A stretch of 64,000 nt of DNA, from the NCBI RefSeq assembly GCF_053078305.1, contig NZ_CP166879.1. One strand, written 5' to 3'. The notes under the pieces were generated by a model. The model was not told where the DNA came from and searched no databases. It saw nothing but the letters and a program-made list of their open reading frames with translations. How positions within the stretch are numbered: position 1 is the stretch's first letter; each line of letters opens with the position of its first letter. A program made the translations under genes and the position numbers. Below are positions 54,972 to 62,462 of the stretch, one piece after another.

Positions 54972-56377
54972 AACTGGCACCGAACGTAAAACGATTACCG
55001 AAAGATAAATACACCGAAGCGGTTATTTTTGCGGGTATTGATGCTCACTCATTCGCAGAGCATTACATCATTGCACAGGCCAAAAAAGCAGGCGATCCAG
55101 TCCCTCCCGTTTATCTGGGGCGTTATCAGTTAAGCGAACTGGATAACCTCCAGATTGTTGATGATGGGCGATACAGGGCGACGGTGATACGCGCCGGAAA
55201 TATTGAAGAGCCGCAGCTGTTAACCATCGCCACGAAACTGGCGAGCGCCGGAGTCCAGGAGGCGCGGCTACTTTCTGAAAATTTCGAATTGCTGGAGGAA
55301 TGGAGCGACCAGCTTCCACGGCTTAGGGAGGCATGGGAACGCGGGGAAAGCCTGGTCATGAAAAAAATTCCCCAGCGAAAAACCACGCTACCGATGAGCG
55401 TTGGATCTACCGGATACGACACACAGCTTGATTACGTGGTAAAGGGGATTATTCCGGCATCGTCGCTTTGCAGCATATACGGGGCGAGCGGTTCCTATAA
55501 ATCATTCCTTGCCGGATCGTGGGCGTGTCACGTTTCCACGGGCCGCCAGTGGGGAGGCCGCAGGGTGGCGCATGGCGCTGTTCTCTATGTGGTTGGTGAA
55601 GGCGGTATCGGCGTTCCGCGTCGTGTAAAAGCCTGGGAGGTTGTGCACGGTGAGCAGGTGAAAAATCTGTATCTGGTAAACCGTCCCATCTTTCCGGCTG
55701 TCCCGCTTGATGTTGATGAACTGGTTATTGCTGCCAGTCAGGTGGAGAGGGAAACGGGTAAACCTGTTCGCATGATTATTCTGGACACGCTGGCGCGTTG
55801 CTTTGGCGGCAATGATGAAAATGACTCCCGCGACATGGGGGCATTTATCCGTGGTTGTGACGAGCTTAAACGGCGCACAGGGGCTACGGTGCTGGTGGTT
55901 CACCATTCCGGCAAGGATGAAACAAAGGGGGCGCGTGGTTCCAGTGCATTTCGTGCATCACTGGACGCTGAATACCGGATACGCAGGGAGGACGCAGGAA
56001 GCGAAGCGCTGGTTATCTCATGCACCAAAATGAAGGACGCGGAGGAACTCAAAGAGGCTGCCTATGATTTGCGGGTGGTGGAGCTTTTTACCGACGCTGA
56101 CGGGGAGTTAATTACGTCGCTGGTGGTGGTGGATAAGCCGCGCCCTCCCGTTGAACTGGAGCGCATCGAGGAGGCAGGCAACAAGACGGAAAACCATACC
56201 GCGCTATGGGGGTGCATCCGTTCACGCACACAGAACGGCGACAAGTGCACGATCCCGCTGTTACGTGACGATATGAAAAAGCTGGGGTATGACACAAAAC
56301 ACCTTAAACGATGGTTAGCCAAACTGGAAAAAGACGACGTGATCTACATTGACGGTGATGATGTAGGACCACTGTAA
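54968..56377 (+). CDS. Replication ATPase (RecA/DnaB-like P-loop, putative initiator/helicase)
   Basis: 469-aa ORF with Walker A GASGSYKS and Walker B IILDTLAR; followed directly by iterons. Confidence 0.65.
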   Translation: MKLAPNVKRLPKDKYTEAVIFAGIDAHSFAEHYIIAQAKKAGDPVPPVYLGRYQLSELDNLQIVDDGRYRATVIRAGNIEEPQLLTIATKLASAGVQEARLLSENFELLEEWSDQLPRLREAWERGESLVMKKIPQRKTTLPMSVGSTGYDTQLDYVVKGIIPASSLCSIYGASGSYKSFLAGSWACHVSTGRQWGGRRVAHGAVLYVVGEGGIGVPRRVKAWEVVHGEQVKNLYLVNRPIFPAVPLDVDELVIAASQVERETGKPVRMIILDTLARCFGGNDENDSRDMGAFIRGCDELKRRTGATVLVVHHSGKDETKGARGSSAFRASLDAEYRIRREDAGSEALVISCTKMKDAEELKEAAYDLRVVELFTDADGELITSLVVVDKPRPPVELERIEEAGNKTENHTALWGCIRSRTQNGDKCTIPLLRDDMKKLGYDTKHLKRWLAKLEKDDVIYIDGDDVGPL

Positions 56378-56580
56378 AAAGTGGGCATTAAAAGTGGGAA
56401 AGGTGGGCGATTTAACGTAATTTTAACAAAATCACCCACTTTCCCACGTGTATATATCCCAAAAAGTGGGCACTAAAAAAATACCTATGAAACAAGATGA
56501 TATAAATCCCAAACTTCCCACGTTGGACGAAGTGGGAAAACGTAAAAAGTGGGCGAAAAAAGTGGGTAGAGGTGGGCAAA
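56378..56580. repeat. Iteron-type replication origin of the satellite
   Basis: At least eight copies of AAGTGGG(C/A)A in both orientations within 200 bp. Confidence 0.6.
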
Positions 56581-56831
56581 TGACTCAAAAACACAGAGAC
56601 AGAACAGAGCCAAAATATAAAGCGTTAGACATGACAGAGCACGCTTTAAAGGTGGCAATCAGGGTAATAGACCGCCACACGCGGGAAGGATACGCGAAGG
56701 AACATCCCGACCTGATAAGCGCATTCATGACCACAGCGGCGGCAAACTTTGCCACGCTGACAGAACGGGAGATAGCCGAAGCGGAACAGGTAACAACCAT
56801 CAACGTTAAAACCGGAGAGGTGGAATCATGA
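56580..56831 (+). CDS. Hypothetical protein
   Basis: ORF 56448-56831 overlaps the iterons; likely start ATG 56580. Confidence 0.35.
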   Translation: MTQKHRDRTEPKYKALDMTEHALKVAIRVIDRHTREGYAKEHPDLISAFMTTAAANFATLTEREIAEAEQVTTINVKTGEVES

Positions 56832-57238
56832 CAGCACAGATAGCCGCTTACGGGCGGCTGGTGGACGACCCGCAGGTAAAACAAACCAGCAAGGGCACAC
56901 CGATGACGCTGGCGCGTATGGCGGTATCTCTGCCATGCAGCCAGGCACAGGACGGGCAGGCTACGTTATGGCTATCAGTGATGGCATTTGGTAAGCAGGC
57001 CGACTTCCTGGCTAAACATCAAAAAGGCGATGTTGCCAGCGTATCCGGCACGATGCAGGTAAGCCAGTGGACCAGACAGAACGGGGAAACGCGGCAGGGT
57101 TATCAGGTTATTGCAGACAGTGTAATCAGTGCCCGTGCTGCCCGTCCTGGCGGGAGCAGACGTACAACCACAGGCACACAGGGTAATCAGCCACCAGCGG
57201 GAGGCGATGACCCTTACGGTGACGGTATTCCGTTCTGA
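56828..57238 (+). CDS. ssb: Single-stranded DNA-binding protein
   Basis: 136-aa OB-fold-like protein with Gly/Pro-rich tail ending DDPYGDGIPF. Confidence 0.7.
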   Translation: MTAQIAAYGRLVDDPQVKQTSKGTPMTLARMAVSLPCSQAQDGQATLWLSVMAFGKQADFLAKHQKGDVASVSGTMQVSQWTRQNGETRQGYQVIADSVISARAARPGGSRRTTTGTQGNQPPAGGDDPYGDGIPF

Positions 57239-57248
57239 GGGGGTGACG

Positions 57249-57521
57249 ATGGTACATGACCGCATAGCGGAGGAACTCGAGGCAAAAGGCTTTTACCGGA
57301 GGGCGGCGGCGCGATGGGGTGAAGTTATGCAGCTGGTGGAGACAGACAAGGAACGGCATCAGGTTACGATGCGACGGCTGGAATGTTCCAGGAAGGCACA
57401 GAGGCCACCGGAGCCGCCGGATAACTTCGGAGACCTGAAAAAAGCAGTAGATCGCACTTATGCCGAAATGGGTATGGATGGTGTAAGCGATGAAATATGG
57501 CGTAATTACCCAGACAGCTAA
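57249..57521 (+). CDS. Hypothetical protein, possibly PerC-like activator
   Basis: 90-aa ORF (ATG 57249); N-terminal AEELEAKGFYRRAAARW resembles PerC family from memory. Confidence 0.35.
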   Translation: MVHDRIAEELEAKGFYRRAAARWGEVMQLVETDKERHQVTMRRLECSRKAQRPPEPPDNFGDLKKAVDRTYAEMGMDGVSDEIWRNYPDS

Positions 57522-57527
57522 TCAACA

Positions 57528-57549
57528 GCCGGAGAAATCCGGCTTTTTT
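57528..57549 (+). terminator. Rho-independent terminator
   Basis: gccgg-agaaat-ccggc hairpin plus TTTTTT; identical hairpin at 59802. Confidence 0.6.
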
Positions 57550-57562
57550 GTACCCAAAAAAA

Positions 57563-57598
57563 GCCCGATAAGTACAGGAGGCATCTTATCGGGCTTTT
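57563..57598 (+). terminator. Second tandem terminator hairpin
   Basis: gcccgataag ... cttatcgggc stem followed by TTTT. Confidence 0.5.
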
Positions 57599-57760
57599 GC
57601 ATATGAGGTTTTTTTGGTGCACTGACACACATGATCGGGGTAATCATTTCATAATTTGCAACACAACTCAACATCATTGCACAAAATGCAATCCTGATTA
57701 TAATCAGAGCTGGATGAACATCCAGTTCTGATTTTTTAAGTCAAAGAGGAATTTCTTACT

Positions 57761-57967
57761 ATGGCTGAAGAGAAAAAAGGCGGTGTTTCGGTGTACATAA
57801 GCCCCGAAATCGTGGAGGTGCTCAAGCAGCGCCACAAAAAAAACTATGAGGCTGGCGTAGCGGCTGGACTGGATCCGCTGATGACGCCGGAGCCGTCGAT
57901 AGGTTCACTTGTGCGCTCTTATTTACTTGCGGCGCTTGGGATGCATAAAAATTATGGTGGTGAATAA
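57761..57967 (+). CDS. Hypothetical protein
   Basis: 68-aa ORF with RBS agagga, immediately upstream of capsid-like gene. Confidence 0.4.
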   Translation: MAEEKKGGVSVYISPEIVEVLKQRHKKNYEAGVAAGLDPLMTPEPSIGSLVRSYLLAALGMHKNYGGE

Positions 57968-59022
57968 TGACAGTAAAAGCAATGGCACTTACAACTAACC
58001 AGCTTTTCGCGTACCTGAATCGCGGGGATATTGCAGAATTTAAATTCAGTCCGCTGTTTACCACGCTGTTTTTCCCGAACGTGGCGACCTTCAACACCCA
58101 GAACATCATGCTGGACACCCTGGACATTGAAGAGGTTACGATGTCAGCGTTCTGTTCGCCTATGGTGGGTAGTCAGGTCCAGCGCGATAAAGGGTACGAA
58201 ACCAGCACGATTAAACCAGGCTACATGAAACCCAAACACGAAATCGATCCAACAAAAACCATCATGCGCATGGCTGGAGAAGATCCGGCACAGCTTAACG
58301 ACCCTACCTACCGCCGTATGCGCCTGATTACTGGCAACATGCGCCGCCAGATAAACGCCATTAAAGCGCGCGTGGAATGGCTGGCGGTGAATGCGATAAC
58401 GACCGGAAAAAACATCATTGAGGGCGAAGGCATAGAACGCTATGAAATCGACTGGAAAATACCGGAAAACTGCATCATAGAGCAGGCCAAGGGTAAAAAA
58501 TGGTCCGAGCATGATAAAGATATTTACGATCCAATCTATGACATCGAACTATACGCAGATCAGGCAGGTTGCCCCGCCAACGTCATGATTATGGGCGCTG
58601 AGGTATGGCGCACGTTACGCAGCTTTAAAAAATTCCGCGAACTGTACGATCTTTCCCGTGGTTCAGAATCCGCCGCAGAACTGGCCTGTAAAAACCTGGG
58701 TGAAGTAGTGAGCTTTAAAGGCTATCTGGGCGATATTGCCCTTATCGTCTATTCCGGCAAATACACTGACAGCGACGGTACCGAAAAATATTTCCTTGAG
58801 CCTGATTTGCTGGTCCTGGGTAACACCAACAATAAAGGGCTGGTGGCCTATGGTGCGATTATGGATCAGGAAGCGGTAAGAACGGGCGCAACGCAAAACA
58901 TGTTCTACCCGAAAAACTGGATTGAAGACGGCGATCCGGCGATTGAGTACGTTCAGACGCACAGCGCACCGCAGCCGGTACCGGCAGATATTCGCAAATT
59001 TGTTACCGTCAAAATTGCTTAA
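57967..59022 (+). CDS. Major capsid protein homologue (lambda gpE-like)
   Basis: 351-aa protein sharing conserved blocks with lambda gpE (FxFxPLF, GYxKPKHE, DPxYRRxR, YDPxxDIExYA, VSxKGxxGDxAxxVYSG, YPKNW, GDPA, SAP); similarity judged from recalled gpE sequence. Confidence 0.65.
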   Translation: MTVKAMALTTNQLFAYLNRGDIAEFKFSPLFTTLFFPNVATFNTQNIMLDTLDIEEVTMSAFCSPMVGSQVQRDKGYETSTIKPGYMKPKHEIDPTKTIMRMAGEDPAQLNDPTYRRMRLITGNMRRQINAIKARVEWLAVNAITTGKNIIEGEGIERYEIDWKIPENCIIEQAKGKKWSEHDKDIYDPIYDIELYADQAGCPANVMIMGAEVWRTLRSFKKFRELYDLSRGSESAAELACKNLGEVVSFKGYLGDIALIVYSGKYTDSDGTEKYFLEPDLLVLGNTNNKGLVAYGAIMDQEAVRTGATQNMFYPKNWIEDGDPAIEYVQTHSAPQPVPADIRKFVTVKIA

Positions 59023-59033
59023 CGGGGGATTCT

Positions 59034-59369
59034 ATGGACACTCCATACATTGAGTTATTTGCAGGCAGTCAGCAGGTATCCACGACGCTGGTACATTTTG
59101 CCGCTGATGCTGGCGTTATTCAGGAATTTACCCCGCTGATGCTGGCGGACAATGGCGAGTTTAAGCCGTGGGATGGTCAGGAATCTGGCAAGGCTGTTTA
59201 TCTGACCTCGTACCCCGTGGACACGTCAAAGCAGAAATCAGCACAGTGTTACAAGACGGGGATATTTAATATCGCCGCCGTAAACTGGCCTGAGAGCGCC
59301 GACACTGACGCGAAAAAATGCGCCGCCTTTGCGGGTTCTGGCGTATCCGTTCAGCCGCTGGCGCGATAA
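59034..59369 (+). CDS. Head decoration protein homologue (lambda gpD-like)
   Basis: 111-aa protein aligning with gpD (TPLML, WDG, YKTGxF, WPE, AFAG), also with the bona fide D N-terminus at 63772. Confidence 0.6.
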   Translation: MDTPYIELFAGSQQVSTTLVHFAADAGVIQEFTPLMLADNGEFKPWDGQESGKAVYLTSYPVDTSKQKSAQCYKTGIFNIAAVNWPESADTDAKKCAAFAGSGVSVQPLAR

Positions 59370-59381
59370 GCAGGGGAAACG

Positions 59382-59795
59382 ATGGCAACGAATGAAAGCA
59401 TCATGGCGCTACCGCTGGCGAGTAAATTTAAAGCAGAAGCGCGGGCAATGGCTGACAGAGGTTTATCAACCTACGAGGCCGTATATCAACTCAACAAACT
59501 GGAAGAGCAGGACAAGCCGCGCGCTGATGCGATTATGGCGCTTCATGAACATAACGACTATCAGCCGCTGTTACGTGCAATGGCAAACGTGCCATGTATT
59601 AGCGTCGATAATGCTCGTGAAATCCTGAACATGACCATAGAGCAGGAGCGCCCAAAGGTTGCGCCGGAGCTTACCGCAGCCTTTGAAAACTTTATGGACA
59701 TGCACAGCCCGAAAGCCGTATCACCCGGCATGGCATACGACGGCAGAAACCAGGGCGATGAAGGCGACGTCGATCGCATACTGAAAACCATCTGA
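59382..59795 (+). CDS. Hypothetical protein
   Basis: 137-aa ORF between decoration-like gene and terminator. Confidence 0.4.
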   Translation: MATNESIMALPLASKFKAEARAMADRGLSTYEAVYQLNKLEEQDKPRADAIMALHEHNDYQPLLRAMANVPCISVDNAREILNMTIEQERPKVAPELTAAFENFMDMHSPKAVSPGMAYDGRNQGDEGDVDRILKTI

Positions 59796-59801
59796 CATAA
59801 G

Positions 59802-59824
59802 GCCGGAGAAATCCGGCTTTTTTT
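59802..59824 (+). terminator. Rho-independent terminator (duplicate of 57528 hairpin)
   Basis: gccgg-agaaat-ccggc plus TTTTTTT. Confidence 0.6.
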
Positions 59825-59856
59825 ACGGGTCCTTTCCGGCATATGGACCCGTTACG

Positions 59857-59868
59857 GGGCGGCGACCT
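59857..59868 (+). other. Satellite cos-like site (cosN GGGCGGCGACCT) in direct orientation
   Basis: About 60 bp (59825-59890) nearly identical to prophage cos 46155-46220, diverging in the cosB-proximal part. Confidence 0.7.
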
Positions 59869-60001
59869 CGCGGTTTTTCGCTATTTATGAGCTTTTTTCG
59901 GGTGCTGGTGGTGGTTTTGTTTTTCGCTCTATCTCTATGAATAAAAAGGGAAAGATAAAACCAATACACCAACCTGAAACATTACTTAAGTGGGGATATT
60001 G

Positions 60002-60544
60002 ATGAAATCGCACCTGATGAACAAAAAAAACATGGCGCAAAGCTGCCGTGTAAGTGCGACAGCGTTCGACAAGTGGGGAGTGACTCCCGTTGAACGTAAA
60101 GGACGCGAGGCTTTTTACGATGTTGCCAGCGTGATAGACAATCGGGTAAGCAATGCAATTAACCAGGTTACAAACGACAAAGGCGAGATTGATGATGATG
60201 AACTCTTACGAGTCAGGATCAGATTACTGACCGCCCAGGCTGAGGCGCAGGAACTTAAAAACGAGCGCGATCGCGGTGACGTAATTGATACTGAGTTTTG
60301 CCTGTACGCGCTTTCAAAGCTGGCGAGTCAGATTTCTTCAATCATGGACAGTTTGCCGCTTACCATGCAAAGGCGCTTCCCGCAGATTACTCCCGCTATG
60401 CTGGATGGGCTTAAAAGGGAAGTGGTTAAAGCCTGTAATGCCAGTGCCACAGTTGCCGACAACCTCCCGAAGATACTGGCTGATTACCTGATGGAAACTA
60501 CCGGAGACGTACCGGAGAAGTTGCTACAGAAGAAAGGCGAGTAA
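60002..60544 (+). CDS. Nu1-like small terminase / packaging-redirection protein
   Basis: ORF 59990-60544 (GTG); C-terminal region resembles lambda Nu1 (LTxAQAxAQELKNxRD, LSxxAxxIxSIxDxxPLxxQRRFP); N-terminal DNA-binding region differs. Confidence 0.6.
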   Translation: MKSHLMNKKNMAQSCRVSATAFDKWGVTPVERKGREAFYDVASVIDNRVSNAINQVTNDKGEIDDDELLRVRIRLLTAQAEAQELKNERDRGDVIDTEFCLYALSKLASQISSIMDSLPLTMQRRFPQITPAMLDGLKREVVKACNASATVADNLPKILADYLMETTGDVPEKLLQKKGE

Positions 60545-60724
60545 CAGACGCGCAATTATTGAACAAAAGTAAGGCCCGACATGAAATCACCCAAAAATGC
60601 CTTTTTCATGCGTTTGTATGTCTGACCTTTTACGGTTTCGATATTATAAAAAACAAATAGTTACGCTCGAGAGGTACCGACACGCATTTTTCAGGAAAAT
60701 TTTCATAAACAGATAAAAACCGCG

Positions 60725-60736
60725 AGGTCGCCGCCC
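60725..60736 (-). other. Second cos-like site in inverted orientation
   Basis: aggtcgccgccc is the reverse complement of cosN; flanks on the minus strand resemble cosQ/cosB. Confidence 0.6.
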
Positions 60737-60800
60737 CGTAACGGGCCATAATTCCAGGAAGGACCCGACGACACCAGGCTATCAGAACGATGAGGGCACA

Positions 60801-61082
60801 ATGACAGAAGCCGAACTACTGGGATTAATCCGCTACGTTACCGGAATCAGCCAGCAGCATGACGAACAGGCCACGCAGCCGGACAGCGTGACCGCTGAAA
60901 ATTATGCGCGTGTTGTTGCTGAGGTGATGCGCCGTGATGGTATCCAGCTTAATGATGCAGATATGCGCGACATACGGATCCGCGTTCTTGAAATGCTGGC
61001 CTACCGTCGCCGCGTGCAGACGTACAGGGAAAAAGCAAAAATAACGTACCAGTGGAAGAAGCCGGAGCGATTACGGCGGTAA
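60801..61082 (+). CDS. Hypothetical protein
   Basis: 93-aa ORF. Confidence 0.35.
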   Translation: MTEAELLGLIRYVTGISQQHDEQATQPDSVTAENYARVVAEVMRRDGIQLNDADMRDIRIRVLEMLAYRRRVQTYREKAKITYQWKKPERLRR

Positions 61083-61127
61083 CTTGCTGATATTCCCGAT
61101 AACGCAAAATTGCGCTCTGTCCTAACC

Positions 61128-61259
61128 CGTTGATATTTTCGGGAACAGCCAACGGCTGAGGCCGGAACAACGATTATCTTTCAGATAGTCAGAGCTACGA
61201 AATTTTCGTAGTTTAATTACTCGCCAGTTTATCGTTAACTCGTTGATATTTTCGGTAAC
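61128..61259. repeat. Two 19-bp direct repeats flanking a perfect 17-bp palindrome
   Basis: cgttgatattttcgggaac at 61128-61146 and cgttgatattttcggtaac at 61241-61259; palindrome ctacgaaattttcgtag at 61195-61211. Confidence 0.8.
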
Positions 61260-61587
61260 CTCAATTTGAGGAGATCGGAAACATAACCCTTCACATTCTG
61301 AATGGTTATAATGACCACTCAGACCATCAAGGCAACCATAACGAACATCGTTACGGTTGGAGCTTTTACCCCACTGGGGGGAAGGTGCACATCTGGATCA
61401 TCATTACCGTGATCAAGGGTATGTAAAACCCACCAGCCTGATTAACTGTTAACCGGAAAAAAGCCAGGTAGCCAATCTCGATATGGGGATCCCCATATCG
61501 ACATTAACGCCCCCTAGAACTGCGCATATCTGCATATAAAAACATCCACCAGCTTTATGACGGATGCCGCTCATCTGATAAATAATC

Positions 61588-61610
61588 GTGTATTGCAATG
61601 TGTATTGCGA
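61588..61610. repeat. Two direct copies of GTGTATTGC(A/G)A at the right end (putative integrase arm sites)
   Basis: Same 11-mer as the three copies at 49980-50032, same orientation. Confidence 0.6.
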
Positions 61611-61688
61611 CTCCTTTAAACGATAGGTTTGAGCATTCGTAATGTACTGTTTTTAAATTTTATTTTTTCCTGTCTTTTCATAAAAGCC

Positions 61689-62462
61689 ATGTATGCCGCC
61701 ACCATTGAGAGTGAGCTGGATACGCAGTCAGCGATGGATTTTATTCTGGGCGCGAACAGTCAGGAGCAGCGGGAAAGGCTGACCGGCTGGATTGGTGAAA
61801 TTGCCGCGTATTACGCCGCAGCACCGGTCCGTCTGGGAGGCGCAAAAGTGCCGCACCTGATGCCGGGGGACTCACTGAACCTGCAGACGGCTCAGGACAC
61901 GGATAACGGCTACTCCGTGTTTGAGCAGTCACTGTTGCGGTATATCGCTGCCGGGCTGGGTGTCTCGTATGAGCAGCTTTCCCGGAATTACGCCCAGATG
62001 AGCTACTCCACGGCACGGGCCAGTGCGAACGAGTCGTGGGCGTACTTTATGGGGCGGCGAAAATTCGTCGCATCCCGTCAGGCGAGCCAGATGTTTCTGT
62101 GCTGGCTGGAAGAGGCCATCGCTCGCCGCGTGGTGACGTTACCTTCAAAAGCACGCTTCAGTTTTCAGGAAGCCCGAAGTGCCTGGGGGAACTGCGACTG
62201 GATAGGCTCCGGTCGTATGGCCATCGATGGTCTGAAAGAAGTACAGGAAGCGGTGATGCTGATAGAAGCCGGACTGAGTACCTACGAGAAAGAGTGCGCA
62301 AAACGCGGTGACGACTATCAGGAAATTTTTGCCCAGCAGGTCCGTGAAACGATGGAGCGCCGTGCAGCCGGTCTTAAACCGCCCGCCTGGGCGGCTGCGG
62401 CATTTGAATCCGGGCTGCGACAATCAACAGAGGAGGAGAAGAGTGACAGCAGAGCTGCGTAA
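61689..62462 (+). pseudogene. Portal protein B, 3' portion (codons 277-533)
   Basis: From MYAATIESELDTQSAMDFILG... to the stop; joins the 49850 half in frame to give 533 aa; ORF-track N-terminal extension is satellite sequence. Confidence 0.85.

Follow-up and report, generated by a model that had tools for sequence, protein, structure and literature searches.

A probable replication origin of short, opposed iterons directly downstream of a predicted RepA-type initiator-helicase gene in a Gram-negative PICI

The island and its insertion site

The window, by which we mean the whole 64-kb (64,000-nucleotide) stretch of DNA that was analysed, carries an element of about 11.8 kb (49856-61682, + strand) that, judged by a gene content matching that of the EcCICFT073-type PICIs, is a Gram-negative PICI of the EcCICFT073 family. 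Its tyrosine integrase gene, int (50051-51292, +; Pfam Arm-DNA-bind_3, Phage_int_M and Phage_integrase), is followed by alpA (51294-51551, +; Pfam Phage_AlpA, E = 5e-14), which encodes a member of the AlpA family, a hallmark of Gram-negative PICIs, whose role as a regulator is taken from published work (PMC6092414, PMC11773190). Further genes upstream of the replication gene rep encode a BRO-N protein, an Ash-domain protein and a DUF4222 protein. Rep is followed by an array of short repeats, beyond which lie genes for an 83-aa protein, SSB, PerC, a major capsid protein, a lambda-D-like decoration protein, a scaffold-like protein and the small terminase (terS; 59990-60544, +). Thus int, alpA, rep, ssb, perC, the major capsid and decoration genes and terS are all encoded on the + strand within 11.8 kb, inside the 8-15 kb range of Gram-negative PICIs, and they run in the characteristic order of int-alpA, replication genes and capsid and terS genes, and tail and lysis genes are absent. 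In gene order the island is collinear with EcCICFT073, with which it shares the series DUF4222, rep, ori, small ORF, ssb, perC, capsid and decoration, and with other E. coli islands listed in Table S1 of PMC6092414.

Two features of the coding region may be recorded here. The 464-aa ORF at 52595-53989 is unusually long, shows an Ash/regulator match in its C-terminal part only, and is represented by several short genes in sister islands; it may be a fusion or an over-extended call. In addition, a terminator-like hairpin, GCCGGAGAAATCCGGCTTTTTT, is present in two perfect 22-nt copies, one after perC (57528-57549) and the other after the 137-aa scaffold-like gene (59802-59823).

The ends of the island were placed by comparison with the intact portal gene of Lambda_2H10, to which homology stops at 49855 and resumes at 61683, giving junctions at 49855/49856 and 61682/61683. 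An imperfect 15-nt core is found at both of them (AAGGCGATTTATGTC and AAAGCCATGTATGCC). The insertion point is therefore the portal gene of a lambda-like prophage (window 49021-49902 and 61629-62462), an attachment site that is absent from Table S1 of PMC6092414. Upstream of the island the prophage carries lysis genes, nohD/terS, terL and gpW, and downstream it continues with the rest of the portal gene, an S49 protease, a decoration protein and a capsid gene. The satellite thereby interrupts a head gene that is essential to a phage of the likely helper type; a literature search for satellites inserted in portal genes found nothing relevant. The same junctions occur in about 46-54 complete E. 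coli genomes. Just upstream of int, the motif TGTGTATTGCAA occurs four times (49979-50034), and the right end of the island contains a further, perfect copy of 21 nt (61588-61612); these copies are candidate arm-type binding sites for the integrase.

Of 5426 complete E. coli genomes, 1501 (about 28%) contain DNA related to the rep gene and the array that follows it. Such DNA had no match in the phage collection, and the element is therefore not a known phage. Elements of this type that are buried in prophages should be annotated as satellites and not as prophage debris.

The Rep protein and the genes that bound the array

The rep gene (54968-56377, +) encodes a predicted initiator-helicase of 469 aa that matches Pfam AAA_25 (E = 6.5e-44). 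Its AF2 model (mean pLDDT 89.8, from a 53-sequence alignment) is composed of three parts: an alpha/beta N-terminal domain (residues 1-125), a RecA-type, RepA/SF4-like helicase core (about 150-390), and a C-terminal winged helix (about 405-469) formed by helices 408-422, 429-438 and 443-455 and a beta hairpin at 459-468. A Foldseek search with this model returned RSF1010 RepA (1g8y, 1nlf and 1olo; TMt 0.67-0.72), as well as T7 gp4 and Twinkle. At the sequence level, phmmer also detected RSF1010 RepA (1g8y, E = 0.01), and no similarity to PDB chains was found beyond this helicase core; the N-terminal 125 residues gave neither a Pfam match nor a significant PDB sequence match. No primase domain is recognisable in Rep. 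The winged helix is encoded by 56180-56374 (+), and its predicted recognition helix, residues 443-455, includes His445 (codon 56300-56302). In distant homologues of Rep, the recognition helix reads K(N/H)FSRW.

The initial annotation had placed the repeat array directly after a 469-aa P-loop ATPase gene and ahead of ssb. While the first of these boundaries stands, the rep stop codon lying at 56375-56377, the second needs correction: the gap that holds the array (56378-56579) ends at an ATG at 56580, from which an 83-aa ORF (56580-56831, +) intervenes before the gene for the PICI-encoded SSB of the replication module (56828-57238, +; Pfam SSB, E = 3e-17). This 83-aa ORF is the true extent of a 127-aa ORF (56448-56831) whose GTG start falls inside the array, after the first five iterons, and which spans the remaining six. 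The suspicion that the 127-aa ORF is over-extended is borne out by two lines of evidence: phrog_1231 aligns with residues 1-83 of 83, and in seven of seven related E. coli loci the RefSeq start of the homologous gene is the ATG equivalent to 56580.

An array of eleven GTGGG cores

Within the 202-nt gap, the pentanucleotide GTGGG occurs eleven times, eight times on the + strand and three times on the - strand, and it is the top enriched 5-mer of the gap region. The remaining 63.8 kb of the window contains 77 copies of GTGGG/CCCAC, both strands together, from which 0.24 cores would be expected per 202 nt (Poisson P(>=11) = 3.6e-15), and no other 202-nt stretch of the window holds more than 4. 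The earlier description of at least eight repeats in both orientations is thus upheld for the GTGGG core, although not in the form AAGTGGG(C/A)A in which it was given, as this literal motif has only 4 matches and is borderline relative to shuffled sequences. Because the literal motif undercounts the repeats, the GTGGG core is the more useful description. AAGTGGG itself is present in 7 copies, and the consensus taken over the array and its related arrays is roughly AAA(A/G)GTGGG(N)(A). A looser pattern, RSGTGGGNR, was dropped, showing no enrichment window-wide.

The array begins with a left set of three direct iterons on the + strand (56379-56409), whose cores, at 56381-56385, 56394-56398 and 56403-56407, are spaced by 13 and 9 nt; the first core lies 4 nt past the rep stop codon, a position that is the same in all related loci. 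An AT-rich stretch follows (56410-56433, 79% A+T), and across it the left set is opposed by two inverted iterons on the - strand (56435-56447; cores 56435-56439 and 56443-56447). After a conserved block, TGTATATA (56449-56456), there is a single central direct iteron (56466-56470, +) and a second AT-rich stretch (56473-56513, about 75% A+T). Beyond the latter lie a divergent pair (56517-56536; 56517-56521 on the - strand and 56532-56536 on the + strand) and a right set of three direct iterons on the + strand (56547-56578; cores 56549-56553, 56562-56566 and 56572-56576). The right triplet, with spacings of 13 and 10 nt, mirrors the left one (repeat families D1/D2), and its final iteron ends 3 nt ahead of the ATG at 56580. 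The order of cores across the gap is therefore +++ / AT-rich / -- / + / AT-rich / - + / +++, and it follows from this layout of sets and inverted copies that iterons oppose each other across both AT-rich stretches. These two stretches have the lowest nearest-neighbour duplex stability in the region and are candidate melting regions.

The gap contains no DnaA box, the closest site with one mismatch being at 56128, inside rep and at chance level. Similarly, a promoter and terminator scan found neither a sigma-70 promoter nor a terminator in the gap, and no Rfam family was matched there, with only sub-threshold hits to eukaryotic miRNA hairpins. These sub-threshold matches, along with an RNA fold z-score of -2.6, are explained by the inverted iterons.

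The TGTATATA block is near-invariant in the alignment of seven E. coli gaps and almost invariant in all E. coli arrays, and it can be recognised (as ctgtataca) in a related Klebsiella array. In sequence it is reminiscent of a LexA half-box or of an extended -10 element, and is a full match to neither.

This anatomy corresponds to that described for the origins of SaPIs and Gram-negative PICIs, in which iterons lie immediately 3' of rep and oppose each other on both sides of an AT-rich centre (PMC6092414 and PMC9371898). An arrangement of repeats could nevertheless serve as a set of operators, at which Rep or another island protein would regulate the 83-aa ORF, ssb and perC, and not as the start of replication. 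The faint likeness of the TGTATATA block to an extended -10 element and the 3-nt distance between the last iteron and the next ATG are in keeping with such a function. Moreover, the initiators of iteron plasmids, which bind iterons, often autoregulate through these same repeats. However, no promoter of the sigma-70 type was detected in the gap by the promoter scan, and an operator would need far fewer sites than the eleven that are arranged here in both orientations around AT-rich DNA. The protein predicted to bind them is, furthermore, a helicase, and Gram-negative PICIs have been described as a single rightward transcription unit (PMC6092414). A regulatory side-role would also be compatible with origin function and no replacement for it. 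We therefore consider it unlikely that the repeats act as operators instead of an origin.

Conservation of the array and its covariation with residue 445 of Rep

For comparison, the gap was aligned from seven E. coli genomes, and 80 further IMG/VR loci that encode relatives of Rep were then analysed. The gap is about 200 nt long in all seven RefSeq-annotated E. coli loci, and of the eleven iteron positions, seven are retained in 55-56 of the 56 distinct arrays that were aligned. Among these seven, the first two left iterons, the inverted iteron at 56435 and the central direct iteron are kept in 56 of 56 distinct relatives and the right set in 55-56 of 56, and the divergent pair occupies the least conserved positions. 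The mean majority-base fraction is 0.84 in the cores, even with their variable fourth base included, versus 0.75 in the spacers.

Where the iterons do vary, the copies in an array change in concert, so that nearly every position, whatever its orientation, reads GTGGG in some arrays and G(T/C)GAG in the others. This change is mirrored in Rep. The distinct pairings of a Rep C-terminus with an array number 57. The 33 that have His at residue 445 invariably show a GTGGG majority, the 24 that have Asn there invariably show a GTGAG majority, and none of the 57 is discordant (Fisher P = 1e-16, uncorrected for phylogeny). The switch between His and Asn is seen on recognition helices that are otherwise identical (LGYEMKxFRRWLYKLEK and LGYEMKxFSRWLRKLEK), and one Rep of the GTGAG type (L005) is 97% identical to the window protein, its differences being clustered C-terminally.

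A scan that took in every alignment column of Rep, the 83-aa ORF, DUF4222 and SSB identified column 445 of Rep as the only perfect partition by iteron class, with a mutual information of 0.99 against a class entropy of 0.99. The second-best column (mutual information 0.58) is one in the N-terminal part of the 83-aa ORF, next to the array. As iteron binders, the 83-aa ORF, DUF4222 and SSB were rejected, with no column in any of them following the iteron class.

The association at residue 445 is inflated, since its codon sits only about 80 nt from the array, and the independent His/Asn switches are few, having been seen on no fewer than two identical backgrounds and in about four contexts of the helix. 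Yet linkage alone fails to explain why all copies within one array change in concert. The covariation (33 combinations of His445 with GTGGG and 24 of Asn445 with GTGAG) thus points to cognate specificity between Rep and its iterons, as far as this can be read from sequence.

Three arrays found with Asn445 (L078, L081 and L083) are mixed, having 5-6 GTGAG and 2-3 GTGGG copies; their left halves are of the GTGAG type, and the GTGGG copies lie in the right half. Any recognition code is therefore either tolerant or has been blurred by recombination inside the origin.

Exchange of rep and array as a cassette

In EcCICFT073, the place of rep, with DUF4222 on one side and the small ORF and ssb on the other, is occupied by a gene for a 584-aa protein, of which only the first ~125 aa resemble the window Rep (47% identity). 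The rest of this protein matches D5_N, DUF5906 and Pox_D5, and is thus an SF3-type helicase, and the gap that follows its gene contains a different iteron, GGTAGAYA, in both orientations. A replacement of the same kind is found in L003, an island at the same insertion site as the window PICI, which nonetheless has an SF3-type Rep and a different intergenic array. Conversely, EcCI11368.1, catalogued in 2018 (Table S1 of PMC6092414), has a RepA-type rep, GTGGG iterons and His445. A more distant relative comes from Klebsiella pneumoniae CP018459.1 (L091; 16,971 bp, circular record), in which Rep is 62% identical to that of the window and has Ser at the position of His445. Here the array (L091 4867-5083, - strand) consists of about ten GTGCGGC repeats with the same layout of left set, AT-rich DNA, inverted copies and right set. 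From these comparisons it follows that Rep and the array travel and diverge as one unit, and that rep and the putative ori move jointly as an exchangeable cassette.

The Klebsiella record was deposited as a circular plasmid and includes integrase, capsid, head-tail adaptor and terminase genes, which suggests that it is an episomal form of a related satellite. The circular record gives an indirect hint that a rep-ori segment of this kind may drive autonomous replication.

The comparison with L003 also bears on whether the array might be a pac-like packaging site for the small terminase that the island itself encodes. Some pac sites do contain repeated short motifs. However, the array lies 3.4 kb from terS and travels with rep; L003 has a near-identical terS start, including two copies of AAGTGGGGA, but a different rep and array; and the iteron class covaries with a residue of Rep. 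Because the array follows rep and not terS, a packaging role is very improbable.

One further relative, L077 (IMGVR_UViG_2541047774_000008), has the two left-most iterons joined directly to the right-most, with the loss of ~170 nt after rep. This looks like a deletion produced by recombination between the left and right direct-repeat sets.

The existence of such natural origin-deletion variants, and the location of the island within a portal gene of the surrounding prophage, raise the question as to whether the window copy, while an origin by descent, is now a dead relic trapped in a disrupted prophage. Against this, the window copy has intact rep, int, alpA and ssb genes and a full complement of eleven intact iterons, and an identical Rep is present on two IMG/VR contigs (L010 and L011), although the names of these share one identifier. 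Additionally, any other lambdoid phage infecting the cell could serve as helper. A dead copy is accordingly judged to be quite unlikely. The window element itself probably replicates.

Relation to known replication systems

The closest tested counterpart is EcCICFT073, of which a rep-ori segment maintains a temperature-sensitive plasmid in a manner that depends on rep and is reduced without ori (PMC6092414). As in that island, the candidate origin of the window lies immediately 3' of rep and has iteron sets around AT-rich DNA. Unlike in EcCICFT073, in which the tested origin has GGTAGAYA iterons and is paired with a D5/SF3-type helicase, the window origin would be served by a RepA-type protein that shares only its first 125 aa with its counterpart. 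No experimentally tested RepA-type PICI origin was reported in the literature searched.

The SaPI system offers a second comparison, drawn from PMC9371898 and the work cited in it. SaPI Rep is described there as a self-loading helicase. Its recognition sites are penta- or hexanucleotide iterons, which are read by a C-terminal winged helix and of which six to twelve follow directly after rep. The window module resembles this system, as presented there, in its predicted initiator-helicase with a C-terminal winged helix, its short iterons directly after rep and its AT-rich centre. It also resembles it in an origin specificity that differs between allelic Reps, which in the present case is indicated by covariation. 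With a putative origin 3' of the initiator gene, at least six short, opposed iterons around AT-rich DNA and a helicase modelled with a C-terminal winged helix, the module has the composition of the PICI/SaPI type. Conversely, whereas SaPI Rep is described in the same source as an AAA+/SF3 helicase of 3'-5' polarity, the core of the window Rep is RecA-type, like that of RSF1010 RepA. The features of an AAA+/SF3 helicase core (D5_N, DUF5906/Pox_D5 or the SaPI Rep ATPase) are not found in it. By its sequence, the window Rep is thus outside the SF3/AAA+ Rep protein family, though it would work like those initiators.

The similarity to RSF1010 extends to the helicase core, of which RSF1010 RepA is the closest solved relative, and to a dependence of replication on iterons, which for the window is likely. 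The IncQ plasmid RSF1010 encodes a separate RepC initiator, a RepA helicase and a RepB' primase, and has direct iterons of about 20 bp. In the window, by contrast, the helicase and the predicted DNA-reading domain form a single protein, and the iterons are far shorter, with a 5-nt core, and are found in both orientations. The island ORFs that were scanned included no homologue of RepC or RepB, and the module is not an IncQ replicon.

The alpha protein of P4 provides a further precedent, in that both elements are enterobacterial satellites with one multifunctional replication protein, in which a C-terminal domain is responsible (in the window Rep, by prediction) for short origin repeats. In P4 alpha, the sites bound by this domain are short octamers that recur at the origin (PMC6092414 and established knowledge). 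The two systems differ in that alpha combines a primase with an SF3 helicase, and in that P4 requires a distant second cluster, crr, while the island is without a second cluster. The only other AAGTGGG motifs in the island, at 59988 and 60071, belong to the AAGTGGGGA copies at the start of terS, and these were considered as a second cis site and rejected. They are also present in L003, which has a different Rep, and are therefore unrelated to Rep specificity and do not constitute a P4-like second site.

Finally, classical iteron plasmids such as pSC101, F, R6K and P1 employ a dual winged-helix Rep without a helicase, tandem direct iterons of 17-22 bp, and DnaA boxes next to them. Having a gap without a DnaA box, short bidirectional iterons and a predicted helicase as initiator, the window module does not belong with them.

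A proposed model for initiation

Together, the position of the array 3' of rep, the opposed iterons around AT-rich DNA, the conserved iteron positions, the covariation with Rep and the replacement of rep and array as a cassette argue that the array is the ori of an EcCICFT073-family PICI and is served by the adjacent Rep. We assign this reading a probability of roughly 0.85 on the basis of these comparative data, which also favour the iteron-origin arrangement proposed in the initial annotation. Such an origin is of a kind already described for PICIs and leaves the current picture of PICI replication unchanged. It would show where replication starts, and where the initiator probably contacts the DNA, in a satellite family carried by about 28% of complete E. 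coli genomes.

A possible sequence of events can be outlined as follows. A helper phage, on which the island probably depends, would trigger AlpA-driven rightward transcription, leading to excision of the island and production of Rep. The C-terminal winged helix of Rep would then read the 5-nt GTGGG cores, with His445, at the start of the recognition helix, reading the fourth base. Oligomers of Rep would gather on the opposed iteron sets flanking the AT-rich stretches at 56410-56433 and 56473-56513, where the duplex would melt and RecA-type, RepA-like rings may self-load on the exposed strands. The single strands would be coated by the island SSB. As Rep is without a recognisable primase domain, synthesis would presumably be carried out by the host primase and DNA polymerase III.

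Beyond the location of the origin, these observations raise the possibility that the combination of a RepA-type (RecA-fold, SF4-like) helicase with an Orc/Cdc6-like winged helix represents a distinct, uncharacterised class of self-loading initiators in phage satellites. This class would be interchangeable with the SF3-type as a cassette, and its specificity would be set largely by residue 445, with His reading GTGGG, Asn reading GTGAG, and Ser accompanying the GTGCGGC repeats of Klebsiella. Taken jointly, we regard the class and its code as having even odds of being correct. The one-residue, one-base specificity switch that is offered here is the most interesting by-product of the analysis; if true, it would amount to a simple protein-DNA recognition code, and could define replication-specificity groups among co-resident satellites.

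A last observation concerns the opposite end of Rep. The N-terminal ~125 aa (window 54968-55345; L002 5242-5620) are common to the RepA-type and D5/SF3-type helicases, at the 47% identity given above. This shared domain may dock a common partner, such as the host primase, a host loader or the protein encoded by the upstream DUF4222 gene.
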